From contig CAWINB010000001.1 in the NCBI GenBank assembly GCA_963837465.1, forward strand, positions 369,929 to 433,928: 64,000 bases of DNA, given 5' to 3'. Every line of letters begins with the position of its first letter. The stretch's first letter is position 1. Below the pieces are notes generated by a model, which had not been told where the DNA came from, did no database searches, and saw only the letters and a program-made list of their open reading frames with translations. Below are positions 11,485 through 54,717 of the stretch, one piece after another. The translations under genes were made by a program, and so were the position numbers. Source of the DNA: Candidatus Doudnabacteria bacterium (GTDB lineage Bacteria; Patescibacteriota; Doudnabacteria; UBA920).

Positions 11485-11581
11485 TTAAATAAAATTTGTT
11501 AATTGAGTAAATTGACAAAATTGGCTGCATAAAATTTTACTTAATTTTATTTATTTTTTAAATTTTACTTATATAGTCTAT

Positions 11582-11776: not shown

Positions 11777-11841
11777 TTCCAGCGGTTAGCGTATAGCGTC
11801 AAGTGATTAGTTCTATACCCTATACCCTATACCCTAACTTT

Positions 11842-12186: not shown

Positions 12187-12291
12187 AAAGCTGTCCGGAA
12201 AGCCGCTTTCGTCGCGAAATTCTAAAATCGCGGCAGAAATGGATCTTTTCAGACAGCCTCTGAGACAATAGGCTCAAGCTTACAAAAATAA

Positions 12292-12322
12292 AAGGGCAAC
12301 CCTTTAAAGGGTTGCCCTTTTT
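12292..12322. terminator. bidirectional rho-independent terminator
   Basis: aagggcaaccctt-taa-agggttgccctt is a perfect 12-bp stem followed by TTTTT. It lies between the convergent rplT and the 12339..12911 gene. Confidence 0.6.
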
Positions 12323-12338
12323 ACTTTTCAGTTCGGGA

Positions 12339-36000: not shown

Positions 36001-39000
36001 CCGCTATTTTCAAACTGAACAAAATTCCCGCCAAAACTGCTTGGGGAATTAATACCTAAGTATGTGCCATTAGCAGAACCGGCAACCAGCGAGTTGCTGC
36101 CTAAAAGAACAGCCGGTGTAGTGCTGGCAGTTAATGTCCCCCCCGCTGTAGTAGTAGCATCCACAGCCAACTGGGTAGATTGGTTGGCAAAGACTTGCAG
36201 TATAGAGGAGCCGGAAGATGAAGCAACTTTAAACGGATTCAAACTGCCTGTTCCCTGGATGTTAAAGCTAACGGCGGAAGAACTGGCGTTGACTCCAACG
36301 ACCGTACCGTTGTTCAGAAGATCGGCAGACGATGTTAGAGTATTGACGCCATTGTAGTAAGCATCCTGGCCTATGGTACCGGAACCGATATCAGAAGCAG
36401 GGCCGATGTATAATCCCCCTGATCCTGTGGAGTAGACTGTGCCTGCTGTCAGGGAGCTTAAGGTGGTGGAACCTGTTACGTTTAAGCTGTCGCCAATATT
36501 CTGGTTGCCGGTAGCGGTTAGGTTGCCGTTAAAGTACCCGTCCCCTACCACGGAAAGTTGCGAAACCGGCGACGTGGTATTAATGCCAAAGTAACCGGCC
36601 GAAGTAATGACGCTGGAAGTCGCGCCGGAGGTATTGTAAATATCTAAAATGTCAGCGGTCTGGCCCGAAACGGGGGTTAAGCTTAACACCGGCGTGGTGG
36701 AAGATGTGGAACCTACGGCAAGTTTGGCTGTTGGATTAACAACGCCAATACCGACCAAATCTGTGGAGGTGGCCAAGTGGACAATGTTGGGGGAAATCCA
36801 GGTCCAGCCGCCGGCCGAGGAGCCGCCGATGCTGGTAATGGTGCCGCAAGTCAGCTGGCCGCTGCCGTCGGTCTGGATGGCGGAAGCGGAATTATCACAG
36901 TTAAGCACGGCGCCGACGCGCACGTTGCTGCCCGCCACAACATTGCCGCTGGTTTGCAAACTGCCGGCCGTGGCGTTAAGCACGCCAAGCCCCAGGCCGC
37001 CGCTGGCAAAAATATTTCCCGCGACCGAAAAATTGGTTACCGGCGAACTGGAATTTATGCCGACATTGCCATTGGCCAAAATACTTAAAATTTGCGCGCT
37101 GGAAGAAGACGCTACGGCAAAAATCTGCAGCGTGGATTGGGTTGAAGATCCCTGCACTGTAAAAATGGCGGCCGGCGAAGAAGAATTAATCCCCAGCTCG
37201 CTTCCGTTATCAAACAATAACGAATTGCCCGTGGTGGACGAGCCGGTGTATTTAACCAGATAATTGTTCGCGCCGCTGCCGGAAAGTTTGTTGTTAAAAG
37301 CCAGCCAGTCGGAATTTTGCAGCTGGCCGGTGTTGACGGAGGAAGCAAACGGCAGGTTAATGCTGAGGGAGTTTGTGGAAGTTGAGATGTTGAAAATATT
37401 TCCGGTTGTGCCGGTGGCAACATTCGCAATGACGTTTGGGGACAAGCCAATGGCTGTGGAAGTACCGATAATAATTTGGCTGCCATCGCCGCTTGTAAAG
37501 GCAAGGCCGCCGCCCAGGGCCAAATTGCCCAGGGTGGTGGTGCCGGTGCCGCCGCTGGCCGGAGTTAAGGCGCTGGTTAAAGTTAATTGGCTGATGGTGG
37601 TAGTTGCAAGAGTGGAAAGTCCGCTGACATTAATCTGGCCCGCGGTTAAGACAGTAAGAGTTGTGGAAGCAAGCGAGCTGGAGCCGCTCACCGTAAGCCG
37701 GCCAATTGCGGCGTCGGCCAAAGTTGATGTGGCGCCGACGCTTAACTGGCCGAGCAAAGTTTCGTCGCCGGTCAGCAGAGCATCTCCCACCACGCTTAAA
37801 GCGCTGCCCGGTGTTGAAGTGCCGATGCCCAGGTTGCCGCCTGCCGTTACGGTGAGCAAAGTTTGCCCGGAGGCCGATGCAAGCGTAAACAAATTCGTGG
37901 GTGAACCCGTAGCCTGCAAAAACAACTCGGAGCTTGGCGCGGTGGTGCCGATCCCCAAACTGGAACCTGAAAGGAATAAAATGTTTTCCGGGCTTACCGT
38001 CGTGCCAAAGGATTGGTAATAGGCGAAACTGCCGGGCGTCCCCGTCGCTACCCCGCTGCTGCCGCCCGTACCGCTGCCTACCAGGCTCCAGGCCGTACCG
38101 TTAAAAAAATTGTACTGGTCGGTGTCCGTGTTAAAAATCAAAAGTCCGGCGGCGGGGCTGGCAATCGCGTCACGCTGCGCCTGCGTCATGCGCGGCGCCA
38201 AAAATCCCTTGCTGGAAGAATCAAGCTCCAGCAAACTTGACGCGTCCGGAGTCGTAGTGCCTAAGGACAACTGGCTGGTAGAGGCTGTGTAAAATAAATT
38301 GCCGTTATCCTGGCTTAAGCCGTTGGCGCCCTGAAAAACCACGCTGCCGGCGGTGAAACCGGGGTTAATATTTGAAACATTTAAATCGGCAATTGTCGTG
38401 CTGCCGCTAAAAGAGGCGTTGCCGTTAAAATCAGAACCGCCCCGCACGTTCAAAGAAATTATATCGGCCTGGTTGGCGCTCAGCGAGTCGCCGGACAACT
38501 GGCTGAAGCCGGCTATTGAACCTATGGTGCCGTTTGAATTTTCCGAACCTACGTAGGCAATCGGCGCCGCCGGTCCGCCGATAAACGACTGACCCGCCCC
38601 GGCGGGACCTTGCGGCCCCTGGGCTCCCGGCGCTCCGTTTTGCCCTTTGAATTTTCCCCGCGCGAGATAAGCGTTCAGCCTGTCATCAATAATCGAATAA
38701 ACTTGGGATTCGTTCAGACCCAAAAGCTGGTTTATAATTTGCGTTCCATCCTGGCCATTAACCACAACAGGGCTGTTGGCATTATCCGCAATACCGGAGG
38801 TGGAGTTTCGCGCTCCTGACTTGCTGTATAAAATATTTGTAATGCCGCCCCGGACATCCGGTTGTTTGGGGGAAATTAAACTCGACCACGCAACGGAAGC
38901 CACAAGTCCGGTTAGCGCGATAATTCCGGTGGCTAAAATCAGCGGAAGATTTGAGGATACCGGTCTGGCAAAACTGCCGTAAAGCTGTTTGATTTTTTCT

Positions 39001-39782
39001 TTGCCTAAAACCAATCCGGCCAGGAATTCCCCGTTCTGCCGCTGAGGCTCAGTCCCGGTTTCGGAAGGCAAATCAAAATTGGAAACAAAATTTTCCATTA
39101 ACGGCAACCGTTCGGCTGCCCGGGTCACCGCCGGCATGGCAATCGGAACGACCGCCGGAATTGAATTCTGAACCAAAGCTTGCTCCGCTTGGTCCGCGAT
39201 TTTTTTGGTCTTTTGTTCCGCCTCCGCCAAACCCCGTGACAGGGTATCAATACGGTTTTCAATATTTTCAAAAACCTCTTTTTTTAAATTGCTCAGCCGC
39301 ATAATTTGCTCCGGCAATTGCTGGACCGGTAATGCCGGTGCCGAACCAATAATATGCTGCTGGGGTGCTTGGACCTGCTGGTTATTCTGCCCGGACCCTG
39401 GCCGATCCAAACTTTGAATATTCGCTTGCTCGGAGGCAACGTGCACGGGGATTTTGTTTCCCGTCTCGTCCAGGACTTCGGAAATCCCATTTTTGTAATT
39501 TTTTATAAAATCATCCAAAGCCGCCCTGGTTGTTACCCAGTTCCGGCCCATTTTGAAACCCTTTAACTTGCCGGTTCTGCAAAGGAAACCAAGGTAGTCC
39601 TGATGGTAGTGGGTCAGCTTACTGGCCTCGGAAAGGGAAACAAAGTCAGATTGGTTTTGAGCCGGAAAAGGAGGCTGGAACGAAGCGCCGGTTGTCTGCC
39701 TGGAATCCGAAAAGCCCAATCCAATTTCCGTATGGTTTGGTTGGCTCGGGTTTTCTAAATTTTTATCTGTTTTTTCGTCCAC
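21077..39782 (-). CDS. giant (about 6,200 aa) type-II membrane surface protein: cytoplasmic excisionase-type HTH, single TM, extracellular collagen-like / tail-fibre-like / YVTN beta-propeller region, interrupted by at least four frameshifts
   Basis: The track ORFs 26466..39782 (4438 aa), 26096..26881, 25440..26129, 25183..25383, 24213..25031 and 21077..24427 carry the same repeat families (GNVGIGTTTP units, YVSGRYAYVAN blades) across their junctions. N-terminus: HTH LSEASKLTHYHQDYLGFLCRTGKLKGFKMGRNWVTTRAALDDFI, then a coiled coil, a TM LPLILATGIIALTGLVASVAW near aa 285 (positive-inside), the collagen-like stretch GAPGAQGPQGPAGAG, and KGFLAPRMTQAQRDAIASPAAGLLIFNTDTDQYNFFNGTAW. Confidence 0.7.
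25560..27830. repeat. imperfect tandem array of about 120-bp units (16 or more, each one YVTN beta-propeller blade), plus a roughly 370-bp segmental duplication
   Basis: The unit gatgtcaacgacggagatg...tttgccacataggcgtagcggccggagacgtagatggaa recurs with a roughly 120-bp period. The segment 25240..25610 matches 26510..27030 apart from indels. Confidence 0.75.
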
Positions 39783-40889
39783 TTTTTTTGGAAAATGCTT
39801 TCGGAAAATTTTATATTATTTGGCGTTCCGGATTAAATTTTGCGTTTATTTTTGTGTCATTTTTCCTAATATCGGATAAGCGATATCTGTATTAATTATA
39901 GCCTTTACCTAAAATCGGGGTCAAGGAATATAAAATAAAAAATGATTGATATTTATAAAATTTGTGTTTCATAATTTAGTAAAAACTAAACCGGAATTTT
40001 GAATAAAATAACTACAAAACCAGCCATGAAAATAAGAGCTTTGGCGGGTAATTATAAATCTGCTTACTTTTTCTTTTTTTGAATCAGGTTTTTTATTTAG
40101 TTTATGAAACATCAATATTCACTAGCTGATTACTCAAAAATACACTTACTCTGCCGACCCATAAATATCGGCTTCTAAAAAACCCATAAACGCTTAGCAA
40201 GCCCGCGGTTAGCGCGATTGAGCAATTTCAAGCTTTTTAAAATGAATAGCGATAGCGTTTTAAAATTTAATATCGGAGCGATTCTAAAATATTTCATTTA
40301 AGAAGCTTCGCAAAAATTACCTCTTATCGAATAACAAAATTAACCATCTCGGATATCCCAAATGGGATAATTTTAAACAAATTTTTGCTCCTAAAGCAAA
40401 ACTGCTTATAAGGCAGATAATTTATAATTAGCTTAGGATAAAATAATTAATTGATTAGATGACACTTTATATTTATTACGCTCAATGAATATAAAAATTA
40501 TTATTTTCAACCCTTATACCATGAAACAGCAATTGTTTAAAGAAAGTTGACTTTATTTTGTTGCACAGCTTGATTTTGAATAAATTCAGCGGAATCTGAT
40601 TATCTAATTAAATTATCCACAGCTAGTATCACTCAAACTGCTTTCTTTTTGTTTTATGCTGCTATATCATCGGCTCGTTTGACAAGAAATTTTTTATGGA
40701 ATAAGCTTAAAAAGCCAAAGAAATTCCTTAACAAAAAGAGTCTTATTTGGGGAAGTCGGGTGAGAATTATCATAATAAGATGATTCAATTCCCGCGCTGT
40801 GCCGCAACTGTAAATTCGCCCTTCGGCGGATAAGCCAGATCGCCGAATAAGGTCTATTCCCGAGCAGGACAATTGCACCCGTAATTTCA

Positions 40890-40914
40890 CCGTCCCTGCC
40901 TGGGGCGGTTTTTT
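40890..40914 (+). terminator. intrinsic terminator-like hairpin immediately upstream of the 40930 start codon (possible attenuator or sRNA 3' end)
   Basis: ccgtccc-tgcct-ggggcgg is a 7-bp stem including one G-U pair, followed by TTTTTT. It lies 15 nt before the ATG at 40930 at the end of a 1.1-kb non-coding region. Confidence 0.35.
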
Positions 40915-40929
40915 AATTAACAACCCCTC

Positions 40930-43399
40930 ATGGACATTCCTGGAAATAATCGAGGTGAATTAACTACGGAAGGTTTTAGCTCTGCTGAAAATGCCTTGGA
41001 TTTTTTGTCGCGCTCGGATAACTGGAGGGAGGGAACAAAATATAACGGCACTGTGTTTACCCATCGCTTAACAGAAAAGGATGAATGGATTCAGGAAGGA
41101 GACGGGATAGAAACTAACAAGACAGAGGAAAAGAGAGCGGGAGACAGACTTGAGCTGCGGGAGCACTCACAGATTATAAGTGATTTAAGAAATAAAGGTT
41201 ACTCAATAATTAAAAAAGAATGCCTTACAAATTCACTCGGGAAAAGAAGAAGCAAAAGCGGGATACGATCAAAAAACCTACGCAGCTGTTTATGTTCTAA
41301 GGGGTGAGATAATTGAAATACACGATTTTGAGGGAACCGAGGAAGAATTTAATAAACGTTTCGCGAACGAACAATGGCTTCAAGATTTAATGGATGACGA
41401 TGACGAACAGTCGCCTGCTCCCCAAGGGGGGAAGGAAACGGTTTTGGATTTAAATAGTTTTTTTGGTTCTAAAAAGGGTGGGCAAAAGCGGGAAGAAAAA
41501 ATGAGTGTTTGGGATGGAGGGTTTTGGCAACGGTTGTTACAAATCGGGAGCAAGACCGAGGAGCAAGATCTCGACAGGTACGAAGATGGAATTTTTAATA
41601 TATCCCAAAGCGTCAAACCAGAGGCAACAAACGACGACATTGGCAAAACAACTGAAAAAAATATTGATTTTTCTTTTTTGGGTATAGCCCCTTTTGGCAT
41701 CACTGTTGAAAAAGGTATTCCTATTACACCGAGATCTGAGTTAAAACAAAAGTCAAAAGCGAGCGACCCGGCCATCAGATTACTTCCAACTAACCCCGAA
41801 CCGTCTTTAGTCCCCTCTTTGGAGCAAAGCGATATCCAAAGCCGCGGCGCGAAACCGGTTTTGGAAATCGCCGTCATGGAAGCGCGAACAGAGAGTCTAA
41901 CGACCGAAGACGGTAATAATTTTTTGGAGATTATTACAATTAAGCAGCGCTCTGTCAACGAGCAGACTAAACATCCGGCTCCGGCAAAAGAGCGCCTGGC
42001 TGTTCAAAATTCAAGCTCTGGCTACGAAGGACAGCCGGCCAAACACCGGGATCTGATTCAGTCGCAAGATGTTTTAACAGAGCCGGTAATAAACAGAGTC
42101 GTTGGCCCGGCTGAAAATGCTGAACAAAAAACCAACCCCACCTTAAGCTTTAAACATCCGGCTCCGGAAATATTAAATATTGACGCCGAAAAAAATAACG
42201 ACAACCTACCGGGCGTAAACATTCCCAACACAACAGCCAAAAGCGCCGATAAGCCAATTTCCACAAAAATTAAAGCTCAGGTAAAAATTCCCATAAAAAA
42301 CAATGCCCCGGAGTTACAACCGGAACCCGAAATGCCGACTGGCATTAAGCTGGGCGATAACGAACCTTATTTAGAAGAAAAGGCCTTCGAGCAAACCATC
42401 ATTCCAACGGAAATTGTAAAAAGTCGACCGGAGATGATTTTGGACAATGCCAATGGCGTTGCTGATGCGGAGGTTGCCGTAGGTTTATTGGAAAAATTAA
42501 GCCTGCCTGACAATGAAAATGGCGCTAAAGAACCAGTAAAGACCCAAAAATCTATCAAAGAAATTTCCACCAACCCGATGATTATTACGGAGAAGGTTCA
42601 ACAATCATCTAAAGATCCTGCCGAAACCCACGTATTGGAAGTTACCAAACCGGCTGAAATACCCGCAAATGAATTGGCGCGAACCGGGGAGGCCGCCGAC
42701 ACACCCTACAACCTTAGGATGGAACCATTAATCCTGACCACGCGAAGGCAAATCCGGGCCTTAGACAAAATGCTTGTTAAAGTAGCGTTACCGGCCGAAA
42801 TTGAAGAATACAAAGAACTCCCCGATGCGTCAGACGAAACAAAAAATCAAGCCGGAGCAACAGAGGCAACCCTTACCGCGAACCCGGAGAGCCGCCAAGT
42901 CGCGATAAATCCGCGGCATGAACCGCGGACAAAACCGGAAAATAAAAACGCGGGCAGTTTTGCCCAAAAGGCCATGGTTTTAAAACGGGAAACCGCCTTT
43001 AACAGGTCGGCTGATTTTGGCCAAAAATCCCGTGCGCGGGAAGTTTCCGTCTCCTCTATATTAAACACCCTATCCAAACTTCAGGATAGCATCCCCGAAC
43101 CAAAAACCCGAACGGCTTTGGCGTTAAATGAAAAACCGGCAATAGCCAAAAACCGCGAACAACAGATATATCCAGACACTTCCAAAGAGCCGGCCGGCGC
43201 TTTCCAAATGATTAACCATAACAGAGCAATATCCGAGCTAAAAAAACCGGCTAAAATTAAACCACCTAAGACAAAAGCCGCGGCTAAATATTATGAAGCC
43301 GATATGGCGAGACAATCATTGATATCAATAGCTCAACTACAGCAGGATCAAACAGACCTAACCGACACTCAAGCCATCACCCTAAAAATGGCCGCATAG
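40930..43399 (+). CDS. hypothetical protein with a globular N-terminus and a long K/E/P-rich low-complexity region; probable frameshift at the A6 run about 41212..41217
   Basis: The track ORFs 40930..41307 and 41390..43399 are joined by an open reading frame: frame 2 is open from 41210 and encodes ...GKEEAKAGYDQKTYAAVYVLRGEIIEIHDFEGTEEEFNKRF. The 125-aa ORF ends in junk-like KRRSKSGIRSKNLRSCLCSKG. The short motif KHPAP recurs. Confidence 0.45.
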
Positions 43400-43436
43400 C
43401 CCCTGACCCCTATCCGCTAAAACCTAACCCCCACCT

Positions 43437-45104
43437 ATGTCCCCGGATTTTTCTAAAATCGGCTACTACGACTTAAAACTGGAAGCGCGAAACCTGCGCC
43501 TGCCCAAAGTTGTGGGCCTGCAAAAGGAAACCGCCCGCTTAAACCGCATCCTGGCGCGCGACCTCCAGCACAACGCCATAGTTTGCGCTCCGTCCGGCTG
43601 CGGCAAAACCGCGCTTGTTGGCGCTTGGGCATTACAGGCGCTTGAAAACCCCTTGTTTGGGGGTAAAAAAATAGCCATGCTGGATTCCGGAAGCCTGCAA
43701 AAAATCGGCCAACTGCCGCAAAGCTCGCTGGCCGGTTATCAGGAAGCTTTCCTGTCGCTTTCAAACTGCGTGTTGATAATAGACAGCTTCGGGGAAATGA
43801 TTTACCAAAGCCTGGGCTCCTTACAAAACTGGAATACTCTTTTAAAGCCGTTATTTTTTAAGCCCGATGTTAATATCATCCTGAATACGCAGCCGGAAGA
43901 ACTGAAATGGCTGCGGGACAACAAGAGCCATTTCTTAAGCCACTTTGAAGTCTTGAAACTGGAAACGCAAAAGACAGAAGAGCTGAGAGAAATTTTAAAC
44001 CAAGCCGCCAAAAAAACCGGCGGGAGGGTTGGCATTGATGCCGATGCCCTGGATTTGATGCTGCGGCTTTGCGAACGTTTCCCAAGCCTGGGACAACTGC
44101 CTAAAAGCGCGCTGCAGTTACTGGATGAATCTTTGGCGGAAATTAAATCCCTCCCGGGCGCGTTATCGCACCGGCTTACGCGAGCGGTTGTGGAAAAAAT
44201 CGCCTCGGAAAAAACCGGCGTTCCCACCGGCCGCCTGGCCGAGGACGATAAAACCATGCTTAAAAATTTACCGGATATTTTGCAAAGCAAAATTATCGGC
44301 CAAAAATCCGCGCTTTTAAAAATGGCTTCGGTTATCCAGCGGGCCCGCCTGGGCCTGCGGGGCCAAACCAGGCCGCTGGGTTCCTTTTTGCTGCTGGGAC
44401 CCTCGGGCGTGGGCAAAACCGAAACCGCCAAAATTTTGGCGGAAACTCTTTACGGTTCCGCTTCCAGCTTTTTAAGAATTGATATGTCGGAGTTCGGCGA
44501 AAGCCACTCCGCGGCGCGCCTGCTGGGCAGCCCGGCCGGTTACGTGGGTTTTGAAGCCGGCGGCCAGCTGACCAATCATTTTAAAAACCATCCTTACAGC
44601 CTGCTGCTTTTGGACGAAATTGAGAAAGCTCATCCGAAAATTTTTGATATTTTTCTGCAAATCCTGGATGACGGCCGGGTAACATCGGGGGGCGGCGAAA
44701 CCGCGGACTTAACGCAGAGCATTATTATGGCCACGTCCAACCTGGCTGTGCAAAAAATTCTGGATGCCTTTGCCGAAAACCCCGAAGCCGGTGATGAAGA
44801 TTTCCTGAAAAATTCCGTCATGCCCGAACTGCTGAAACATTTCCGCCCGGAATTTTTAAACCGCTTTGACAGCATTTTAATTTATAAACCTCTGTCCCTG
44901 GAAGACTTAACCGACATTGCCCTGCTGGAAGTTGGCAAGATAGAAGCCAGGACAAAAGCCCACAATATTAAATTTGCCGTAACCAGGGAAGCGCTGCGGG
45001 ACAAAATCATAGCTCTGGCCGATCCCCGTTTTGGCGCCCGTCCGGTTAAACGCTTTGTGGAAGAAGCCTGTGAAAATCTGATAACGCGGGCGCTGCTTAA
45101 ATAG
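43437..45104 (+). CDS. truncated Clp/Hsp100-family double-AAA+ ATPase (ClpB/ClpC-like, no N-domain or middle domain)
   Basis: The D1 region matches ClpB (RLNRILARDLQHNAIVCAPSGCGKTALV; KIAMLDSGSL; LLKPLF...DVNIILNTQPEE; the sensor region RLCERFPSLGQLPKSALQLLDE) but its Walker B is IIDS, not DE. D2 is canonical: LLLGPSGVGKTETAKILA, LLLDEIEKAHPKIFDIFLQILDDGRVT, SNLA. Confidence 0.8.
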   Translation: MSPDFSKIGYYDLKLEARNLRLPKVVGLQKETARLNRILARDLQHNAIVCAPSGCGKTALVGAWALQALENPLFGGKKIAMLDSGSLQKIGQLPQSSLAGYQEAFLSLSNCVLIIDSFGEMIYQSLGSLQNWNTLLKPLFFKPDVNIILNTQPEELKWLRDNKSHFLSHFEVLKLETQKTEELREILNQAAKKTGGRVGIDADALDLMLRLCERFPSLGQLPKSALQLLDESLAEIKSLPGALSHRLTRAVVEKIASEKTGVPTGRLAEDDKTMLKNLPDILQSKIIGQKSALLKMASVIQRARLGLRGQTRPLGSFLLLGPSGVGKTETAKILAETLYGSASSFLRIDMSEFGESHSAARLLGSPAGYVGFEAGGQLTNHFKNHPYSLLLLDEIEKAHPKIFDIFLQILDDGRVTSGGGETADLTQSIIMATSNLAVQKILDAFAENPEAGDEDFLKNSVMPELLKHFRPEFLNRFDSILIYKPLSLEDLTDIALLEVGKIEARTKAHNIKFAVTREALRDKIIALADPRFGARPVKRFVEEACENLITRALLK

Positions 45105-45109
45105 ACACT

Positions 45110-45228
45110 TAACACGGATATACCGACGCGACGCGGATCTACGGACATCTACTGATTCTAAGAGCCTGGCGACATCCGTAGGCATCGGTAAATCCGTTTC
45201 TAATCCGTATATCCGCGTATATATATTT
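45110..45228. repeat. duplicated intergenic spacer, copy 1 (about 119 bp, runs from stop codon to start codon)
   Basis: The repeat reads taacacggatataccgacgcgacgcggatctacggacatctactgattctaagagcctggcgacatccgtaggcatcggtaaatccgtttctaatccgtatatccgcgtatatatattt and is followed directly by an ATG. Its ends are inverted repeats (cggatatacg / cgtatatccg). TATATAT sits 3 to 4 nt before the ATG. Confidence 0.8.
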
Positions 45229-45531
45229 ATGAGCAACGAAACACTCCATCCCAAAGAATTTCCGCCAATAACTCCGCCGCGAAACGGCGGCGGTACGGAT
45301 AATTTAAGCAAACAGCGGATTCAAAGCCTGGCGGTCCAAAGGAAGCAATGTTTGGAAGGAATCAAACCGGATATTTCCCGCAAGCTTTATTTTATGCTGG
45401 AAGAAAAGCTGGAAAAAGAACAAAAAAACCTGGAAGAAATTCTGGACTGGCAACAGGGAAAATTAAGCCGTCTGTCCAGGTACTCGCTGATTCTGGATTC
45501 GCATTATTTTGAACAGGAATTTTTAAGCTAA
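45229..45531 (+). CDS. hypothetical protein (100 aa)
   Basis: The ORF is bracketed exactly by the two copies of the duplicated spacer. It has a coiled-coil-like C-terminal half and no recognised family. Confidence 0.45.
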   Translation: MSNETLHPKEFPPITPPRNGGGTDNLSKQRIQSLAVQRKQCLEGIKPDISRKLYFMLEEKLEKEQKNLEEILDWQQGKLSRLSRYSLILDSHYFEQEFLS

Positions 45532-45653
45532 CACGGATATACCGACGCGACGCGACGCGGATCTACGGACATCTACTGATTCTAAGAGCCTGGCGACATC
45601 CGTAGGCATCGGTAAATCCGTTTCTAATCCGTATATCCGCGTAATATATATTT
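45529..45653. repeat. duplicated intergenic spacer, copy 2 (about 125 bp)
   Basis: It is near-identical to 45110..45228. It carries one extra gacgcg hexamer and one extra A. It again spans stop codon to start codon. Confidence 0.8.
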
Positions 45654-46943
45654 ATGAACTACGTTACCCTGGGCCACAATGTTTTCCGCGGCAAGTCCAC
45701 ACCCATACAGTTTTTGGATAATGACCGGCTGCGGCATATGTATATGATAGGCAAAACCGGCGTGGGCAAATCCACCCTGTTTGCCAATATGATGCTGCAG
45801 GACATTATTAACCTGCGCGGCGCCTGCTTTATAGACCCTCACGGCGAGGCAATATCGTGGCTGCTGCAAAACATCCCCAAAGGCCGGCTGGAAGATGTGA
45901 TATTGTTTGACCCATCCAATACGGAAAATCCCGTAGGCTTAAATCTCCTGGAAGCTAGCACGGAAAGCGAGCGGGATTTTTTGGTTGGCGAACTTATTGA
46001 AATTTTTTACAAGCTGTTTGATCCGCAAAAAACCGGCATCATCGGCCCGCAATTTGAACATTGGCTGAGAAACGCGGCGCTGACTATTATGGCCGACCCG
46101 GCCGGTGGCAGTCTTTTGGAAATTCCGCGGCTGTTTACCGATAAAAGCTTTGAGCGCCACAAACGCGAATTTGTTAAAGACCCCCAGGTAATGGAATTCT
46201 GGACCGGACAGATGGCTAAAACGAGTGATTTCCACAAAAGCGAAATGCTGAATTATTTTACTTCCAAATTCGGCCACTTTTTAAACAATTCGCTCTGCCG
46301 CAATATCATCGGCCAAAACCACAGCGGCTTTAATTTTGGGGACATTTTAAAAAAAGAAAAAATCCTGCTGGTGGATTTATCCAAGGGAAAAATCGGCGAA
46401 CTTAATTCCAGATTTTTGGGTTTGATTTTAATTTCCAAGCTGCAGGCGGCGGTGCTGAAACGGGCGCGCCTTAAACCCGGCGAGTATCCGCCGTTTTACC
46501 TTTACGTGGACGAGTTCCAGAACATGACCACGGATACTTTTGCCAGCATGCTTTCGGAGTCGCGCAAATACGGGCTTGGCGTGCACCTGACCAACCAGTA
46601 CTTCCAGCAGCTGCCGCAAAATATCCAGGACGCGGTCCTGGGGAACGCGGGCACGCTGCTGAGTTTTGCCCTGGGCGTGGAAGATGCCGAACTGTTGGAA
46701 AAGCAGCTATATCCTTTTACCAAAGAAGACCTGTCCAATTTGGGAAAATTTAATTTTTACATTAAGCTGATGTCCAACGGCCAGGCCACGCAGGCTTTTT
46801 CCGGCATCAGTCAACAGCCCTTAAAGCGGGCCGAAACCGACCACGGCGAAACCATAAAAACCCTGAGCCAGCTGGCCTACGGCAGTCCCCGCCTGCTGGT
46901 GGAACAGGAACTCCAGCGCAGAATAAGAACGAACGGCATTTAG
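45654..46943 (+). CDS. soluble VirD4/TraG/TraD-like (type IV coupling protein family) P-loop ATPase
   Basis: Walker A is YMIGKTGVGKSTL. Walker B plus the downstream motif FYLYVDEFQNMTTDTFASMLSESRKYGLGVHLTNQYFQQL...LGNAGTLLSF matches the TrwB/VirD4 pattern hhhDE...(R/K)K.G....Q...QL. There is no N-terminal TM segment and the protein is only 429 aa. Confidence 0.65.
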   Translation: MNYVTLGHNVFRGKSTPIQFLDNDRLRHMYMIGKTGVGKSTLFANMMLQDIINLRGACFIDPHGEAISWLLQNIPKGRLEDVILFDPSNTENPVGLNLLEASTESERDFLVGELIEIFYKLFDPQKTGIIGPQFEHWLRNAALTIMADPAGGSLLEIPRLFTDKSFERHKREFVKDPQVMEFWTGQMAKTSDFHKSEMLNYFTSKFGHFLNNSLCRNIIGQNHSGFNFGDILKKEKILLVDLSKGKIGELNSRFLGLILISKLQAAVLKRARLKPGEYPPFYLYVDEFQNMTTDTFASMLSESRKYGLGVHLTNQYFQQLPQNIQDAVLGNAGTLLSFALGVEDAELLEKQLYPFTKEDLSNLGKFNFYIKLMSNGQATQAFSGISQQPLKRAETDHGETIKTLSQLAYGSPRLLVEQELQRRIRTNGI

Positions 46944-46965: not shown

Positions 46966-46978
46966 TAAATGTAAATTT

Positions 46979-47011
46979 AAACCTCCTTGAGGGTAGACCT
47001 CAAGGAGGTTT
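46979..47011. terminator. terminator hairpin between convergent genes
   Basis: aaacctccttgagg-gtaga-cctcaaggaggttt is a perfect 14-bp stem. A T-rich run follows on the plus side. Confidence 0.55.
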
Positions 47012-47053
47012 AGTTTAAATTCTAATTCTTATAAATCAGATAGCTGTCGGATA

Positions 47054-47866
47054 TTACTTCAGGGCCGCGTCAATTGCCTGTTCAAAAGTGGTCACGGGTT
47101 CGGCTCCAACTATAATTTGCCCGTTAACAAAGACGCTGGGGGTACCCGACACGCCGTAAGATTTACCGGCCGCGGTTTCCTTTGCGACCTCGGCCGCGTA
47201 TTTGCCGCTGTCCAAACATTGGTCAAACTGGGTGGTATTTAAGCCAAGGGTGGCCGCAAATTGTTTTTGGTGCACAGCCGTGGCCCAGCCAGTGTTTTCT
47301 TCCTGCTGGTTGTTGAACAAATAATCGTGATATTGCCAAAACTTGCCCTGGTCTTCGGCGCAATGAGCGGCCTCCGCGGCAGTGGTGGAATCGGCGCCCA
47401 AAAAAGCAAAATCCTGATAAACAAATTTAATTTTGCCGGTATCAACATATTTGGCTTTCAGTTCCGGCCAGACGGTTTTGTAAAACTCCTCGCAGAATGG
47501 GCACTGATAATCGGCAAATTCCACAACCGTCACTTTGGCTTTGTCATTGCCCAAATAGGGAGTATTGGGGGCTAAAGTAATGTTAACCGGACCAGCAGCC
47601 GCGGCCTGGGGAGCCGAAGGAGGGGTAACGGCCGAAGGAACGGCGGCGCTTTGAGCCTGCTGGCTTGACGCGAGCTGAGCAAAGCCTAAATTAAGATGCT
47701 TAAACAGCAAATTAAAATTATAAAATAAGCTGGCGGAAATTAAAACCGCGCCAAGCAGAAAACTGCCTGCTAAAATCCAGGTTTTCAAACCGACATTTTT
47801 ATTTTTTGCTTCCAAATTTAAATCCGCGCTGATATTTTGGTTTTTTTGATCCGGAGGATTATCCAT
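47054..47866 (-). CDS. membrane-anchored DsbA-like thiol:disulfide oxidoreductase
   Basis: It has a thioredoxin fold with CPFC (YQCPFCEEFYKTVWPEL) and an N-terminal TM anchor, following the DsbA/BdbD pattern. Confidence 0.75.
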   Translation of the reverse strand: MDNPPDQKNQNISADLNLEAKNKNVGLKTWILAGSFLLGAVLISASLFYNFNLLFKHLNLGFAQLASSQQAQSAAVPSAVTPPSAPQAAAAGPVNITLAPNTPYLGNDKAKVTVVEFADYQCPFCEEFYKTVWPELKAKYVDTGKIKFVYQDFAFLGADSTTAAEAAHCAEDQGKFWQYHDYLFNNQQEENTGWATAVHQKQFAATLGLNTTQFDQCLDSGKYAAEVAKETAAGKSYGVSGTPSVFVNGQIIVGAEPVTTFEQAIDAALK

Positions 47867-47946: not shown

Positions 47947-50900
47947 TTAAGACAAATTCTGCGGTATCACCAACTCATACCCTACCTTAAGCGTCTTGGT
48001 ATTGCCGGGGATGCTTAAACAACGGGGGTTGGCGGCCAGGATGGCTCTCCAGTTGGAGACGCTGCCCGTCAGCTTTTTGGCAATTCCCGACAGGGTGTCT
48101 CCTTTCTTAACCGTGTAAGTAGTGGAAGCCGACGAGGTAATAGAAGCTCCCTGGACCTGCGGCGATGGTTGCTGCGGATATTCCATCTGCAGTCCCTGGA
48201 AATTGGCCGGCATCTGCAAGCCCGTAAAGGGTTGGGTTACGGCCGCGCCAAGCACGGAAACACCGCCCGTTGCGTTGACTTGAATGCTAAACTGGCAACT
48301 ACTGCTTATGTTCAGCTGGTTGGTAACCTGGACAATAAAATTGTAGGTACCCGCTGTCGTAGGCGTGCCGGAAATTTGGCCGGTGGAAGTGTTAAAGTAA
48401 AGTCCCGGCGGCAAGGAACCGCTGATAAGGCTAAAGCTGGTGGAAGAAGCCCCTCCGACCAAAATATTGCTGTTGTAACCCTGGCCTAAATTAGCCTGGG
48501 GCAAAGAAGTGGTAAGGAAATAAGGATAGTAGGAAGTGCCGTAGCTATAACCATAACTGGTACCCGTCCCGCTGCCGGTTGATGTGCTGCCGGTTGAGCC
48601 GGTATTGCTTGTGCCGGAGTTACCGGAACTTGCGGCCGCGTTAATGGTAATCGTCAAGGGCACGGAACTGCTGACCAGGCCATTGCCATCGGTAACCCCC
48701 GCGTAAAAAGTATAACTGCCGGCTGTGGTTGGGGTGCCGCTTAAGCTGCCATTCTGGCTTAAAGTTAATCCCGGGGGCAAATTTCCGGTATAAGAGAATG
48801 TCAGGGCAGTGTTGCTGGAAGACGAAGCCTGCAAATTAGTGGTCGGGTAAGCCTGTCCAGCCGTGCCATTGGGTAATGATGTTGTGGTTAATACAGGCGG
48901 GGCAACAGCAGAAGCCCCTCCCGAGGCGGCAGCAGGATTAACAGTCAGGCTAAACTGGACTGAAGTAAAATTACCCAGGGAGTCCGTGGCCACAACCGAG
49001 AAACTACTGCTACCGGCCGTGGTTGGAGTGCCGCTGATAAGTCCGGAAGGGCTTAAAGTCAACCCGACCGGCAAGGTACTGCCGGTGGCCAGGGCGAATG
49101 TTATGGCTCCCGTGCCCGTGCCGGACAGGATATTTAACTGCTGGCTATAAGCAGTCCCCACAGTGGCGGCGGGAATGGAAGTCGTGGTGATAACCGGAGA
49201 GGCGGCAGTTCCGGTGGTTCCGGATGTCTGAGCAGCGGAAGACGCGGCGGGCACGGTTACGGAAAGAGCGTTGGAAAACAAAGTGGGATTAGCGCCATTG
49301 GCCACCTGTATTGTATATTGTCCGGCAGACAGGGCGCCATACAGTACCGTAATTTGGCTGTTATTGGCGGAAAGAATGCTTACCCCCATTACCTGGCCGG
49401 CGCTGTTGGTCATATGGACAATATCCGAGGTAGCGTTGGCGGCAAAGCCGCTGCCGGTAATTACTATCGTACCAGCCTGCTGGTTAATCGTGGCAAGGCT
49501 GATGGTGGGGGCAGCAGTGGAGCCGACAACCGCGGAACCTCCTGTTGAGCCTCCGGACGAGCCTGCAACGGTTGAAGCTACCAGCATACTCCATGGCAAA
49601 CTTACAGTATTACCGGCGCTGTCTGTAACAACCACCGTAAAACTGTAAGTGCCGGCTGTGACTGGAGTCCCGGTAATTGTTCCGTTGGCATTTATTGTAA
49701 GTCCAGGCGGAAAATTTCCGCTGCCGGAAAACTTATAGCCTGTACCGCTGCCGCCGACAGCGGAAAACTGCCCAACGTAGGCTACCCCAACCGTAGCCGT
49801 GGGAGTGGCCTGGCCGGTTATGAAAGAGAGGGTCGAAGATGTTGCGGCCGCTCTGCTGGCCTGTACGGTAAAATTTAAATTACCTATTGCCGTGGCCGAT
49901 GATTGAGAAGCACCCACGGACCAGGTTTCCGCCCATGCGCCAATATCAGCGGTTACCATCTGGCCGGATATAACCAAACTGCCCGACGCGGGTATGGTTC
50001 CATAATTGGTTGTCGATAACGCGCCCGCGTTTTGAGAGGCGCTGCCATAAACATTCAAACCAGCGGCACCGGTAATGGTAAGCTGCCAATTATCCCCTAC
50101 GGCCAAAGTGGCGGCATTGGCAGGCGATGTAAGATTGGCAAAAGTCAGGCTGGTGGCCGCGCTGCCCACTGTGGGTCCGTTCACAACAGTCGCTCCTGTA
50201 GTACCGCCGGTTCCGGATCCCGTGGTTGCTGCTGTGGATCCGTTAAGGGCGACCGGATTTGTGGTCGCGGTAGAAGATGGTTTGCCTATGTAATTGGTGG
50301 TGGAAACAAACGAGCCCGGTTGAGCATTAGGGTTGTCGTGATAATATTGAGCCGCGGCTATCTCGCTCTGTACAAATCCTGTAGCCACATTTGCCGGCGA
50401 GGTTACAAACCATTGGGCCAGGTTGCCGGCATTCATTTGGGTACCGTCGGGAAACTGGATCATCCACTGGCTGGCGCCGGCGGCATTGGCTTGGAACGGG
50501 CTGGCCGCAGTATAAGTGGTAATAGGGACCAGTACAGCCGTGCCGCCAAACTGCTGAGCCAGCCACTCGGCAGTTGCCTGGGTGGCATAGTTGGCAGGGT
50601 TAAGCGCCTGACTCTGTCCGGTTGGTAAATAAACTACGGCAGCATTGGTAATAAATGTCGGGGTAAAAGGAACGGTTGCGGGGCTGACTGTAAAATTAAG
50701 GGTATTGCCGACCTGCTTAAGGCTACTGATGCTTGGGTTACTGGGCGGTGTTGCGTTTGCGGCAAGAGAACTTCCAACCATAATGCTGACGCTCCAAGTG
50801 CCGACATCGTTATTTGTTAAAATCGGGCCCATGGTCTGCAAATTACCGTTGGCATCTGTTATTCCAAGGTAAATGGTTCCGTTTTGGTTGATACCATAAA

Positions 50901-53900
50901 CAGGCGCGTTGGGAGTGGCGCCGGTAACGTTAATCACCCAGTTATTTCCAACTCCTATGGTATTGCTGGAGGTGCCAAAGGTACTCATGGTCGCCGTAGA
51001 GCCGGTTACGGGAGTGCCGGTGGGGACTACCCCTTCGCTACCTGTAAGCGAAGGAGCGGCCGGAGAGGTGGCTGACTGCCCTAACTGCGGCGTTACGCTA
51101 AAATTCAGGGTGCCCGCGCTTACTGCCGAACTGCCGCTGGCAGCGCCAATTGTAAATTGCTCGCTCCAATTGCCTACTTGCTGATCGCCGACAGTTCCAG
51201 CCAATACCAACTTGCCGCCTTCAATAGTACCCATCTGGGTAGTAGTCTGGACACCATTTTGGATACTGGTGGCGAACACGGGAGTACCATCTTTAGTGCC
51301 GGCAGGAGCCGTAATAGTAATAGTCCAGTTATTGCCTACGGACAGGTTTGAATTATTGCCTGAGTCGGTGGAAAAACTAACATTGCTGCCCGAAGTACCG
51401 TTAACTACTGTAGGGGTAGCTTGGGCGCCGCTTGACGCAAGAGAATTATTAGCGGCTCCAAGTTGATTATAGGCCTGAACAAACAACTGAAAAACCGCCT
51501 GAGAGACCGGGGTCACGGTACCGGCATTATATGCCTGTAATTGAGAACTAAGACTGGCTAGATTTGAAGCCGTAATCGGCGGAATACCCGCTACCGAGTT
51601 ACCATTGGCATCAACAACAGTTACCGTCACGCTGCCGTTGCTGTTTTGGGTAATTTGGGTAGTAACACCTGCCGGGAGTGTTGCTGGGAGAGAAGGCGCG
51701 GTACCTATGGTACCGGACGACCCGCTCCCGGTGGCGCTGCCCACCGTACCCACGGTTAATTTCTGACTTTGTCCAATGCTGGCAATGGCCGATAAGGTGG
51801 CCTGGGAAATATTGGGATTAAGAGTGCCGTTAACGTAGCCTGAATAAGTGCCATTGGCGTTCTGGACGACCGTAACATCACCATTGATGGCGTTACCATT
51901 GGCATCTGTTCCTACATAAGCCAAAACTCCGGCAGTATTATTGACAGTGGAAGGAAATACTGTATATGGAGTGTTGTCGGTCACGCTACCGGCAGTAAGC
52001 GCGCTTTGGATTGCGGCAACTTGCGCGGCTGAAAATTGATTGGTAATATCAGCACCCGAAGAGTCTAAAATTCTTCCGGTGGAAGTTACGGTAAGAATTT
52101 GAGGTGTATTATTTACATTTATAGTTGCGGACAAACCTCCGCCAGAAACTTGAGTGACAGATGAACTAAGCGTAACAGTAGGATACGCAGTAGTGATGGA
52201 ACCAATACCACTAGCTCCAACAGTAACAGGCTGGCCGCTGGCAGTCGAGTAAGGGGAACCGCCGACCGGTACGTTGTAGTAAGGTGTACCATCGGAAAGA
52301 GTTCCGGCAGGAGTTAGATTTGCGTAAAGAAGCGGCTCGTCCCAGGAATTACTAGAAGCGTTGTAAGTCCATGTATTCCCGGAAGAATCCGTATAGGTTG
52401 CGCCATTGGCCGGGTTGGTTGGAAAAGTTGTTGAAGTTGCCGCAGTAACATTAACAGTCCGGCTTGTCGAAACTGTAGAGTCGTTCGGATCTGTATAGGT
52501 AATGATATAAGTGCCCGCGGGGGAACCGGCAGGGACAACGCCGCTGACCAAGGGAGTGCTACCATCGGAAATAGTGGCGTCGGGATCAGTAAAATACTGG
52601 CCGACAGTCAAGTTCATCACAGAATCACCATTTAATGTTATGGTGGGGGCGGCAGGGGCGGTAACAGTTACAGTCCTTGTTACTGGAGAAGCATTCGTAA
52701 AACTATAGGTAACGGTGTAAGTGCCTGGCTGACTAGTATTAACATTCCCGCTTCCTGTGATATCACTACTAATTTCATTGTCATTTTCATCATAGACGTT
52801 TGCGCCGGCATCCGCCCAAGTACCGCCTTGTTGAACCGTATCGTTGCCAGTATTTAATTTGATTGTGTAGGAAGCATCTTGGGTGGGGTCAGTAACATTA
52901 ACAGTCCGGCTTGTCGAAACTGTAGAGTCGTTCGGATCTGTATAGGTAATGATATAAGTGCCCGCGGGGGAACCGGCAGGGACAACGCCGCTGACCAAGG
53001 GAGTGCTACCATCGGAAATAGTGGCGTCGGGATCAGTAAAATACTGGCCGACAGTCAAGTTCATCACAGAATCACCATTTAATGTTATGGTGGGGGCGGC
53101 AGGGGCGGTAACAGTTACAGTCCTTGTTACTGGAGAAGCATTCGTAAAACTATAGGTAACGGTGTAAGTGCCTGGCTGACTAGTATTAACATTCCCGCTT
53201 CCTGTGATATCACTACTAATTTCATTGTCATTTTCATCATAGACGTTTGCGCCGGCATCCGCCCAAGTACCGCCTTGTTGAACCGTATCGTTGCCAGTAT
53301 TTAATTTGATTGTGTAGGAAGCATCTTGGGTGGGGTCAGTAACATTAACAGTCCGGCTTGTCGAAACTGTAGAGTCGTTCGGATCTGTATAGGTAATGAT
53401 ATAAGTGCCCGCGGGGGAACCGGCAGGGACAACGCCGCTGACCAAGGGAGTGCTACCATCGGAAATAGTGGCGTCGGGATCAGTAAAATACTGGCCGACA
53501 GTCAAGTTCATCACAGAATCACCATTTAATGTTATGGTGGGGGCGGCAGGGGCGGTAACAGTTACAGTCCTTGTTACTGGAGAAGCATTCGTAAAACTAT
53601 AGGTAACGGTGTAAGTGCCTGGCTGACTAGTATTAACATTCCCGCTTCCTGTGATATCACTACTAATTTCATTGTCATTTTCATCATAGACGTTTGCGCC
53701 GGCATCCGCCCAAGTACCGCCTTGTTGAACCGTATCGTTGCCAGTATTTAATTTGATTGTGTAGGAAGCATCTTGGGTGGGGTCAGTAACATTAACAGTC
53801 CGGCTTGTCGAAACTGTAGAGTCGTTCGGATCTGTATAGGTAATGATATAAGTGCCCGCGGGGGAACCGGCAGGGACAACGCCGCTGACCAAGGGAGTGC

Positions 53901-54717
53901 TACCATCGGAAATAGTGGCGTCGGGATCAGTAAAATACTGGCCGACAGTCAAGTTCATCACAGAATCACCATTTAATGTTATGGTGGGGGCGGTCGTGGT
54001 TTGAAGCGGGTCGTTCCAGGTATCAGTAGAAGCGTTGTAAGTCCATACAGTCCCGGAAGGATCAGTATAGGTATCACCATTGCTTGGATTGCTTGGAAAA
54101 TTTGCCAGATTGCTTTTACTAGTTCCTGTGCTAGGGTCAGTAGTCGTTACATCCAAAATCTGACTGTTGGGATCTGATGAAGCATAATAATTACCATCGG
54201 AGCCCAGGTAAACAGTGACTGCCGAGCCGTCACTGACATACCAAGCATTTGTAGGAGTGGTGCTAACGGTGACAGTATTAGGGTCAGTAGTTACACCGCC
54301 GCCATCCCCGCCGCCATCCCCGCCGCCGGAAGCGCCTTGGTCAGAAGCACCCGCGTCGCCGCTAGCGGCAAGCATCTCTTCTGCTTTAGCCTGCTTCGGG
54401 CCTATGGTATTTTGGTAAATGCCGCCGAAAATTTTATTTAACGTATCTTTTATTTTGGATGTGCGGGCTGTTTGCTCCTGGCTCTGCGTGCTGACAAACT
54501 GGGTATCCTGGGTTTTTGGCACTACTGCTCCAGCTCCCCCAAGCAGCGTAGCTCCCACGCCCAAGCCCGCGACCACTTTTTCCTGGGTTGTAATTTTTTT
54601 CTTATTTCGTTTTACGCGTTTTATTTTAACCTTATTCATGGGGTTTTTATAATGATTGGCTGGTGAATGTTTAGGCTCGTGCTTGCGAGTCTTCCCAGGA
54701 GGTTTTGTTTTAGGCAT
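47947..54717 (-). CDS. giant (2,256 aa) TM-anchored surface protein: basic cytoplasmic tail, single TM, tandem Ig-like (DUF5011-type and putative-Ig-type) domains, C-terminal LysM
   Basis: The N-terminus [17 protein letters not shown]...KRVKRNKKK is followed by the TM [19 protein letters not shown]. A 149-aa unit ([28 protein letters not shown]...[24 protein letters not shown] plus [69 protein letters not shown]) is repeated 3.5 times identically. Later regions such as [69 protein letters not shown] are putative Ig domains. The C-terminus is LysM: [31 protein letters not shown]...[10 protein letters not shown]. Confidence 0.85.
   Translation of the reverse strand: [2256 protein letters not shown]
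52440..54000. repeat. perfect tandem repeat, 447-bp unit x about 3.5
   Basis: Identical small ORFs recur in the track at a 447-bp period (52511/52958/53405 and 52879/53326/53773). The repeat lies inside the CDS and encodes two Ig-like domains per unit. Confidence 0.9.

Follow-up and report, generated by a model that had tools for sequence, protein, structure and literature searches.

We describe an operon that pairs a Clp-like unfoldase with a soluble ATPase resembling type IV coupling proteins (T4CPs), found in a 64,000-nt stretch of Candidatus Doudnabacteria bacterium (assembly GCA_963837465.1, contig CAWINB010000001.1, positions 369,929-433,928 of the forward strand), the whole of which we call the window. 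The block at 40930-46943 is one copy of a chromosomal four-gene operon, encoding in order an acidic and mostly disordered protein (gene 1), the double AAA+ ATPase (gene 2), a small helical-hairpin protein (gene 3) and the T4CP-like ATPase (gene 4); these and other features of the window are listed in Table 1. The first-pass annotation, whose coordinates our own listing of open reading frames (ORFs) confirms, rightly described the genes as co-directional, all five ORFs being on the plus strand, but its count of five genes needs revision: the ORFs at 40930-41307 and 41390-43399 are a single gene whose frame switches at an A6 run at 41211-41216. The continuous orthologue in locus L007 spans the junction in two consecutive frames (tblastn), and the repaired product has 822 aa. 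The frameshift is likely an assembly error, since the tail of a giant adhesin gene and the LVIVD-repeat ORFs at 25440-26881 are also broken. No transmembrane (TM) or hydrophobic segment is predicted in any of the four operon proteins, and the GC content of the block shows no compositional break relative to the rest of the window.

Table 1. Positions of the operon genes and of other features in the window.
Feature	Position	Strand	Remarks
Pilin-like gene	14804-15307		
PilC with C-terminal SH3 domain	16502-17995		
PilB	18170-19822		
Pilin-like gene	20436-20975		
Gene 1, acidic, mostly disordered protein	40930-43399	+	About 822 aa after frameshift repair
Gene 1 C-terminal tail codons (AITLKMAA and stop)	43373-43399	+	
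Gene 2, ClpB-like double AAA+ ATPase	43437-45104	+	555 aa; Pfam, NCBIfam, structure alignment
Gene 3, small helical-hairpin protein	45229-45531	+	Positional clustering, alignment, AF2 model
Gene 4, soluble VirD4/VirB4/HerA-superfamily ATPase ("short form")	45654-46943	+	429 aa
Terminator-like hairpin, bidirectional, intrinsic type	46977-47013		Strong, 16-bp stem; ends the operon and the convergent DsbA gene
DsbA-like thioredoxin	47054-47866		Convergent to the operon
PilX_N protein	57479-58891		
Pilin-like gene	59406-60041		
Pilin-like gene	60051-61883		

The four operon products

Gene 4 carries a Walker A motif (GKTGVGKS), a Walker B motif (YLYVDEF) and an invariant Q315-x3-Q319-L320 motif, which we take to be of T4CP type. 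Hydrophobic segments are absent, the highest Kyte-Doolittle value over any 19 residues being 1.32, and just 20 residues precede Walker A, so that the earlier description of a T4CP-like ATPase with these motifs and no membrane anchor is upheld. Of the profile searches that the first-pass annotation had proposed, those for AAA_2 and ClpB_D2-small gave clear matches in gene 2, but those aimed at gene 4 gave marginal ones: TrwB_AAD_bind at 22.9 bits (cut-off 20.5) and TraG-D_C at 22.1 (cut-off 22), with DUF87 just under its cut-off (23.0 versus 23.2). Taken together, the Pfam and NCBIfam matches favour TrwB_AAD_bind, TraG-D_C, T4SS-DNA_transf, CD1115 and TraD over FtsK and HerA. An AF2 model (pLDDT 84.7, pTM 0.86) predicts a RecA-like core in which some 130 residues, all alpha-helical, are inserted between the two Walker motifs, and its fold matches include, with their scores, the VirB4 C-terminal domain (28.3), DptH/DndH (27.4), TrwB (26.2), DotL (24.1), HerA (23.5) and Cagβ (21.5). 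When sequence profiles are compared with solved structures, HerA and TrwB are about equally close, these searches being too weak to separate them. Gene 4 does not answer to the description of VirB4 (an N-terminal VirB4 domain with a C-terminal ATPase; CagE_TrbE_VirB and AAA_10 models), nor to that of HerA and FtsK (a match at the family threshold; for HerA a NurA-type or other nuclease partner; for FtsK the TM, linker and gamma domains). Judged by its sequence and predicted structure, gene 4 is most fittingly called T4CP-like, on the VirD4/VirB4/HerA branch, and it is a candidate rather than an established coupling protein. T4CPs without a transmembrane domain are a recognised minority class in monoderm systems, as illustrated by TraJ/TraI of pIP501 (PMC7431656).

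The product of gene 2 matches AAA_2 (3.7e-53) at residues 312-480 and ClpB_D2-small (5.7e-10) at 486-555, and in comparisons with ClpC and ClpB structures its second module (D2) aligns strongly (261 bits) and its first (D1) weakly (43 bits). The same alignments confirm that it lacks both an N-domain and a middle domain: residue 12 aligns to ClpC residue 169, D1 ends at about residue 237 and D2 starts at about 247 without the intervening 55-125 or so residues, and the ClpB region of about 400-520 has no counterpart. Clp_N (PF02861) matches neither the window protein nor any of its 120 best database relatives, which are 432-579 aa long and nearly all 528-579. The ClpP-docking loop is likewise absent, with a four-residue gap lying opposite the VGF loop of ClpC, and in the corresponding region the family shows ..(E/D/Q/N)GF.. 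or ..AF.., resembling ClpB (..I(I/L)xGF..). The protein scores far below every NCBIfam equivalog cut-off (347 versus 1232 for ClpB).

The D1 Walker B motif of the window protein is VLIIDSFGEM, with DS in place of DE, from which it had been proposed that this ring binds ATP and probably does not hydrolyse it; this reading of the motif holds for 53 orthologues, all of which have hhhhD(S/N/D), the glutamate being lost throughout. These orthologues keep the D1 Walker A motif, GxxGxGK(T/S), and have no pore-loop aromatic residue in D1, so that across the family the D1 ring probably binds nucleotide without hydrolysing it. D2, by contrast, is canonical, with Walker A GPSGVGKT in 52 of the 53, Walker B LLDEIEKAH in all, and a near-invariant pore loop (G(A/P)xGY(V/I)G), arginine finger and sensor-2 GARP. 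In characterised Clp proteins the middle domain ties ClpB to DnaK, the N-domain ties ClpA and ClpC to adaptors, and an IGF-type loop ties ClpA, ClpC and ClpX to ClpP. By its motifs, then, gene 2 is predicted to be an Hsp100-type threading motor with one active ring and without the known handles for adaptors, DnaK or ClpP, and it is probably protease-independent, like ClpB and ClpV, because its ClpP-loop region resembles that of ClpB.

Gene 3 orthologues are 75-125 aa long. A helical hairpin follows their disordered N-terminus, and at the C-terminal end they share the motif YS(F/L)xLDxxYFEQ(K/E)FL, which looks invariant. No family match was obtained in Pfam or NCBIfam. The AF2 model (pLDDT 71), built on a thin alignment of three homologues from a word-based search, places helices at 22-45 and 51-89, and nothing in PDB matched it significantly by Foldseek (E > 1; the hairpins resembling EsxB are generic).

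In the product of gene 1 the N-terminal region is folded and the middle is long and disordered, leading to a tail that ends ...AITLKMAA-COOH. Pfam, NCBIfam, PADLOC and PHROG yield no family match for it. About 50 loci have a long acidic ORF (14.5% Glu, net charge about -10 per 100 aa) in the place of gene 1; these orthologues, assigned by position, are 400-1,000 aa long, have no TM segment and are not alignable overall, and BLAST of the window protein against the fetched loci gave no match. The first 100 residues carry a charge of -5 to -29 in nearly all of them, and the last 100, unlike the acidic N-terminus and middle, are neutral to basic. An iterated profile of the N-terminal domain of about 100 aa, seeded from locus L045, reaches significance in 22 of 48 orthologues and matches another 4-7 more weakly; it did not recover the window copy, whose N-terminal 175 aa found L007 as the sole match in a phmmer search.

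The C-terminal end of gene 1 is conserved, with the consensus L-N-G-I-T-[LM]-[RKE]-x-A-A-COOH. Two terminal alanines are present in 30 of 45 orthologues and in 8 of 730 background ORFs of the same loci, an enrichment of about 60-fold (Fisher p of about 1e-35, which is no true probability, the sequences being related rather than independent), and a final alanine in 37 of the 45 and 39 of the 730. The eight background ORFs include a missed orthologue in L064 and the window's own copy, which is the sole ORF of at least 100 aa in the window to end in this way. All four alanine codons are used at both terminal positions. We considered and rejected selection on a ribosome-binding site or other RNA-level signal as the source of the conserved tail: the alanine codons vary freely and the downstream intergenic gaps have no common motif, and thus selection acts on the protein. 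Gene 1 is fast-evolving, and as far as these comparisons reach, selection visibly holds only its N-terminal domain and Ala-Ala tail. Searches for tRNA and tmRNA genes in the window, and for tmRNA in 36 loci, found none.

The region ahead of gene 1 is a 1.1-kb AT-rich gap (39783-40929, about 39% GC) between the operon and a divergent giant gene, with no plus-strand ORF of 60 aa or more. A terminator-like hairpin with a T-run lies at 40889-40909, just ahead of the first start codon of the operon, and no Rfam family was found in the window, this leader region included.

Conservation, longer relatives and surroundings

The pairing of unfoldase and coupling-type ATPase is real and non-random. We fetched 85 loci, 60 with an ATPase at least 60% identical to gene 4 and 25 at 52-55%. 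The Clp-like gene is directly upstream of the short ATPase in all 60 of the former, and none was found within 10 kb in the 25 others, in 24 of which the ATPase ORF was recovered, with 790-869 aa in 23 and, in one where masked sequence cuts it short, 591 aa. Extraction of ORFs shows a constant order of long ORF (400-1,000 aa), Clp-like gene (about 553 aa), small ORF (75-125 aa) and ATPase (about 425 aa), all co-oriented and usually separated by 0-30 nt or overlapping. Clustering of neighbours in 53 loci recovered the Clp-like protein in 53, the ATPase in 52 and the small protein in 45, the next cluster reaching 10 and DsbA 8. The small ORF and the C-terminus of a Clp-like gene are still upstream in the short form that diverges most among those found (57% identity). 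The order of the operon is thus conserved and its surroundings are not: the flanks vary by lineage (EngA, LytR and RecG in one; FtsX, MerR, META and Pif1 in another), and giant adhesins do not recur among the neighbours. Sixty of sixty loci with differing flanks therefore dispose of chance adjacency and of the remnant of an integrative conjugative element (ICE), and make the adhesin and DsbA context of the window incidental. The first-pass annotation had placed the genes on an island between two giant adhesins and suggested a functional link to these and to the DsbA-like oxidoreductase; neither idea survives, the GC content being unremarkable and the neighbourhood not conserved.

Short-form ATPases are 60-82% identical across many lineages of Patescibacteria, with a mean column identity of 74%. 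A word-indexed search returned more than 6,600 relatives of gene 4, the best 120 of which are 379-435 aa long, 64-82% identical and from Patescibacteria lineages that include Magasanikbacteria, Doudnabacteria and Paceibacterota. Among 50%-identity representatives, an exhaustive search found 18,496 proteins with E <= 1e-3, of which 4,544 reach E <= 1e-30, and a scan of genomes matched at least 599 stretches, 580 of which were confirmed. No short-form match was found in 2.9 million viral contigs (IMG/VR).

More distant relatives (38-55% identity) carry a TM helix at the N-terminus together with a domain annotated as DUF8128, which spans about 370 aa, and these long-form paralogues have no Clp-like or small-protein partner; the latter two are specific to the short form. 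In a rough neighbor-joining (NJ) tree, with a paralogue linked to a sigma-factor gene as outgroup, the short forms are monophyletic, their sister being TM forms of about 840 aa, followed by forms linked to gyrB-gyrA. The clade of about 840 aa has an acidic protein of 150-600 aa directly upstream of the ATPase, which ends in two alanines in 5 of 24 cases. A subgroup of 1,100-2,000 aa (P0126, P0127, P0129, P0130, P0134, P0141, and L088 at 10001-13351) adjoins gyrB-gyrA, an arrangement also seen at SEML1_0141/0142 of Southlakia epibionticum, and carries an Ala/Pro-rich disordered C-terminal tail of 300-1,200 aa, the end of which is conserved as ...KLxxGE(V/I)(F/Y)(V/I)DxxGNV(I/T)xGE (for example, ...GEVFVDExGNVIIGE). 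These tails in cis, together with the acidic upstream proteins, indicate that an acidic or disordered partner recurs across the ATPase clade. SEML1_0142, which appears to correspond to the gyrBA-linked long form, being equated with it by synteny and size and not by sequence, is a core, Patescibacteria-enriched gene classed as ES at all three Tn-seq time points, whereas the second paralogue there, SEML1_0293, is classed as non-essential and has a sigma-factor gene beside it (PMC10633639 Table S1). VirD4-like paralogues of Patescibacteria are mostly encoded away from type IV secretion system (T4SS) genes (PMC12102498).

We note several further features of these relatives. In several of the loci L060-L085, which represent the clade of about 840 aa (for example L062, L066, L070 and L074), a DUF5663-like protein of about 110 aa, a very acidic protein of 950-1,570 aa, or both, are also found upstream. 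Behind the ATPase of L062 (2983-16209) come a sigma70_r4/HARE-HTH protein and another T4CP-like paralogue, which is more distant. The family phrog_5156 (824 positions, function not assigned in PHROGs) matches the window ATPase over 388-806 (E = 3.8e-48), and long-form relatives have therefore been catalogued as viral proteins; other PHROGs and PADLOC matches to the operon proteins cover core domains only. Southlakia epibionticum also encodes a second double AAA+ protein without Clp_N, SEML1_0700 (860 aa, AAA_2 and ClpB_D2-small; PMC10633639 Tables S1, S2), which is not beside a T4CP-like gene and adjoins a 127-aa helical-hairpin protein, SEML1_0701; this pair may be a Saccharimonadia counterpart of the Clp-like and small proteins.

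The window itself encodes no detectable VirB4, VirB6, relaxase or integrase. The earlier statement that no other secretion components lie nearby stands as to VirB4 and VirB6 but not more generally, PilB, PilC and five pilin-like genes being present (Table 1), and both giant adhesins and the DsbA-like gene sit within this type IV pilus and surface-protein neighbourhood. The DsbA/MdbA-like family is Patescibacteria-enriched and linked to pilins (PMC6744442). The giant surface proteins on either side of the operon contain Ig-like, He_PIG, LysM and LVIVD domains. One is a minus-strand ORF of 4,438 aa in the region 21077-39782, the end of which looks out of frame, and LVIVD-repeat ORFs continue downstream on the same strand at 26096-26881 and 25440-26129, and then at 24213-25031 and 21077-24427. 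The intact gene may encode more than 6,000 aa and be interrupted here by frameshifts, which are probably assembly errors like that in gene 1. By eye, the first 100 or so residues of this protein (39600-39782, minus strand; LSEASKLTHYHQDYLGFLCRTGKLKGFKMGRNWVTTRAALDDFIKNY) resemble an excisionase/MerR helix-turn-helix ahead of a TM helix, and Pfam at E <= 0.001 reports no helix-turn-helix there. The other adhesin (2,256 aa, 47947-54717, minus strand) has three or four near-identical tandem Ig-like copies of about 150 aa (APTITLNGDSVMNLTVGQYFTDPDATISDG) and a LysM end. The sole mobile-element gene seen in the window is a Mutator-family transposase (Transposase_mut, 1.7e-17) at 1515-2435 on the minus strand, 38 kb from the operon.

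A candidate mechanism and its alternatives

The reading that we prefer, and hold tentatively with somewhat less than even confidence, is that the Clp-like ring threads the Ala-Ala-tagged gene 1 protein, cooperates with the coupling-type hexamer and hands the chain to a membrane partner. The four operon products would act together, with the Clp-like hexamer serving as a dedicated, ClpP-independent threading motor and the gene 1 protein as its client. ClpX and ClpA take hold of the ssrA tag by its ...LAA-COOH end, and by analogy the free Ala-Ala carboxy-terminus would be the engagement signal, the disordered chain then being pulled through D2 until the N-terminal domain is met and unfolded. Degradation is an unlikely outcome, because the adjacent Clp protein has no ClpP-docking loop. 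The coupling-type hexamer would be the receptor and second motor for the chain, with the small hairpin protein probably acting as a bridge, and the basic, hydrophobic C-terminal region of gene 1 would be comparable to type IV secretion signals. Finally, the hexamer would pass the chain to a membrane partner encoded elsewhere, either a membrane-anchored paralogue or a T4SS of the MPF-FATA-like kind, which about 80% of Patescibacteria possess. These steps become less secure in the order of joint action, threading of gene 1, the Ala-Ala signal, receipt by the hexamer and, least secure, export. In favour of the proposal are the conservation of the operon, the canonical D2 and degenerate D1 of gene 2, the enrichment of the Ala-Ala end and the charge layout of gene 1, the VirB4/TrwB/DotL-like fold of gene 4, the existence of T4CPs without a transmembrane domain, and the recurrence of disordered partners in the ATPase clade. 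Substrates of T4SSs must be unfolded, and their unfoldase is not known (Trokter and Waksman 2018, PMC5826034). A survey of 3,035 Patescibacteria genomes reports 5,713 VirD4-like genes, spread over 2,918 of the genomes; only 148 of these genes lie near virB4, and the authors suggest exaptation (Quiñonero-Coronel et al. 2025, PMC12102498).

Several observations weigh against this proposal, and particularly against its later steps. The operon has no membrane component, and no T4SS (VirB4) or relaxase gene recurs within 10 kb across the 53 loci. In the survey just cited, virB4 is found in 2,417 genomes, fewer than the 2,918 with T4CP-like genes, which argues against an obligatory coupling to T4SSs. 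The disordered region is fused in some relatives to the membrane-anchored ATPase, an arrangement more suggestive of a tether or recruitment arm than of cargo for secretion. One third of gene 1 orthologues do not have the exact Ala-Ala end, and the sister clade has acidic upstream proteins, some of them ending in two alanines, without a Clp-like gene, so that the tail may address the ATPase rather than the Clp ring. Moreover, identities of 60-82% across lineages are unusual for secretion coupling proteins and look like those of a core cellular function.

Several of these points sit more comfortably with a cytoplasmic, DNA-linked housekeeping machine, the main alternative, which we place on the unlikely side and in which the ATPase is a HerA/FtsK-like translocase or other core motor, gene 1 is a DNA-mimic regulator, tether or scaffold, the Clp protein removes or resets it through the Ala-Ala tail, and nothing is exported. 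The extreme conservation of gene 4, the wider distribution of T4CP-like genes than of virB4 (PMC12102498) and the fusions in cis all speak for such a machine, gene 4 is as close to HerA as to TrwB in sequence, with HerA and DptH among its top folds, and RecG, Pif1, DprA or RmuC are encoded near some copies; these DNA-related neighbours are not conserved, however, the operon shows neither a DNA-binding domain nor a partner of nuclease or NurA-like type, and the Pfam and NCBIfam matches favour T4CP families over FtsK and HerA. The grouping of short forms with the gyrB-gyrA-flanked long form in the rough NJ tree points the same way, inasmuch as the SEML1_0142-type gene is reported as essential, but the equation with SEML1_0142 is by synteny and size only. 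The outcome of the preferred threading reaction may be either export or a cytoplasmic or DNA-linked process.

A role in anti-phage defence or inter-bacterial conflict, with a HerA-like ATPase and an AAA+ partner, is very improbable. The resemblance is seen in the top folds of gene 4, which include DptH/DndH, TdpA, HerA-Sir2 and HerA-DUF, and in weak PADLOC matches (mad8 at 7.5e-14 and HerA at 2.7e-8 for the ATPase; PDC-M37B and DolB for D2 of the AAA+ protein), but the latter cover generic P-loop and AAA+ cores and none is full-length. No effector domain (nuclease, Sir2, TIR or protease) was found in the operon, and its constant gene order and vertical-looking identity of 60-82% contrast with defence islands, which are typically patchy and fast-moving; a relative is also reported to be essential for growth. 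Least credible of all are a chance juxtaposition beside the adhesins and the remaining suggestion of the first-pass annotation, that of a decayed ICE remnant, for although gene 4 matches conjugative coupling-protein families and a Mutator-type transposase is present elsewhere in the window, the same four-gene order is found in 60 loci with differing, variable housekeeping flanks, the catalytic motifs are intact and nearly invariant, and there is no integrase, relaxase, VirB4 or VirB6, no compositional break and no relative in viral contigs.

A more specific form of the preferred proposal, which we consider distinctly unlikely as it stands, is a two-motor polypeptide translocation machine peculiar to Patescibacteria, in which the Hsp100 reads the Ala-Ala tag and feeds a polyanionic, DNA-like chain to a repurposed hexamer, either for delivery to the host through the essential T4SS or the pilus, or as a force-generating tether. 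If true, a dedicated unfoldase hard-wired to a T4CP would here be seen in nature for the first time, and the ubiquitous orphan coupling proteins of the Patescibacteria would gain a function.

Meaning and comparison with known systems

Patescibacteria account for a large share of bacterial diversity and are ultra-small and attached to other microbes, and to our knowledge most of their conserved lineage-specific genes are without a known function. Full-text searches on Patescibacteria/CPR found no published description of the combination of Clp-like protein and coupling-type ATPase or of its function: a systematic study of Patescibacteria T4SSs mentions no Clp partner (PMC12102498), and the operon is not described by Méheust et al. 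2019 (PMC6744442) or Wang et al. 2023 (PMC10633639). The original idea of an undescribed module is thereby strengthened, now as a conserved operon. It gives a genetic context, fixed partners and a candidate tagged substrate for part of the approximately 5,700 orphan VirD4-like genes, and the natural genetic coupling of an unfoldase to a coupling-type ATPase bears on the question of which factor unfolds type IV secretion substrates (PMC5826034). The machinery is probably central to the biology of Patescibacteria, because a membrane-anchored relative appears essential in the one genetically tractable species, and the four proteins, having no predicted TM segments, should be suited to work in vitro.

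The operon shares parts with several known systems and departs from each of them. Gene 4 differs from the T4CPs (VirD4, TrwB, TraD, DotL) in having no membrane anchor and no linkage to T4SS or relaxase genes, and from conjugative T4CPs in being far more conserved, with VirB4, DptH and HerA matching about equally by fold. It is also paired with an Hsp100 protein and a cognate disordered protein, and we found no T4CP so described. With the long-form paralogues (for example SEML1_0142 and SEML1_0293) it shares an ATPase domain at 38-55% identity and acidic or disordered polypeptides encoded upstream or fused; their N-terminal TM helix and DUF8128 domain are both missing from the short form.

Type VII (ESX) systems combine an FtsK-like coupling ATPase (EccC/EssC), a cytosolic AAA+ protein (EccA) and helical-hairpin WXG100 partners, and ClpV of type VI secretion is a further point of comparison. 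In the operon, a membrane domain is lacking, as are the WXG and YxxxD/E motifs; the match of the gene 3 hairpin to EsxB is not significant (E > 1), and the AAA+ protein is of Hsp100 type rather than CbxX type. The tail of gene 1 resembles the ssrA/tmRNA tag in having a free C-terminal Ala-Ala after a hydrophobic or aliphatic residue, on an unstructured chain and with its gene beside that of a Clp-family ATPase; it differs in being genomically encoded on one dedicated protein, and in that the adjacent Clp protein has no ClpP-docking loop. As for gene 2, it shares with ClpB, ClpV and ClpA/ClpC the two tandem AAA+ modules and a canonical D2 with AAA_2, ClpB_D2-small and the GYVG pore loop. It is set apart from ClpB and ClpA/ClpC by the absence of Clp_N, of the coiled-coil middle domain and of the IGF/VGF loop, by the loss of the Walker B glutamate and pore aromatic from D1, and by its fixed place in an operon with a VirD4-like ATPase.

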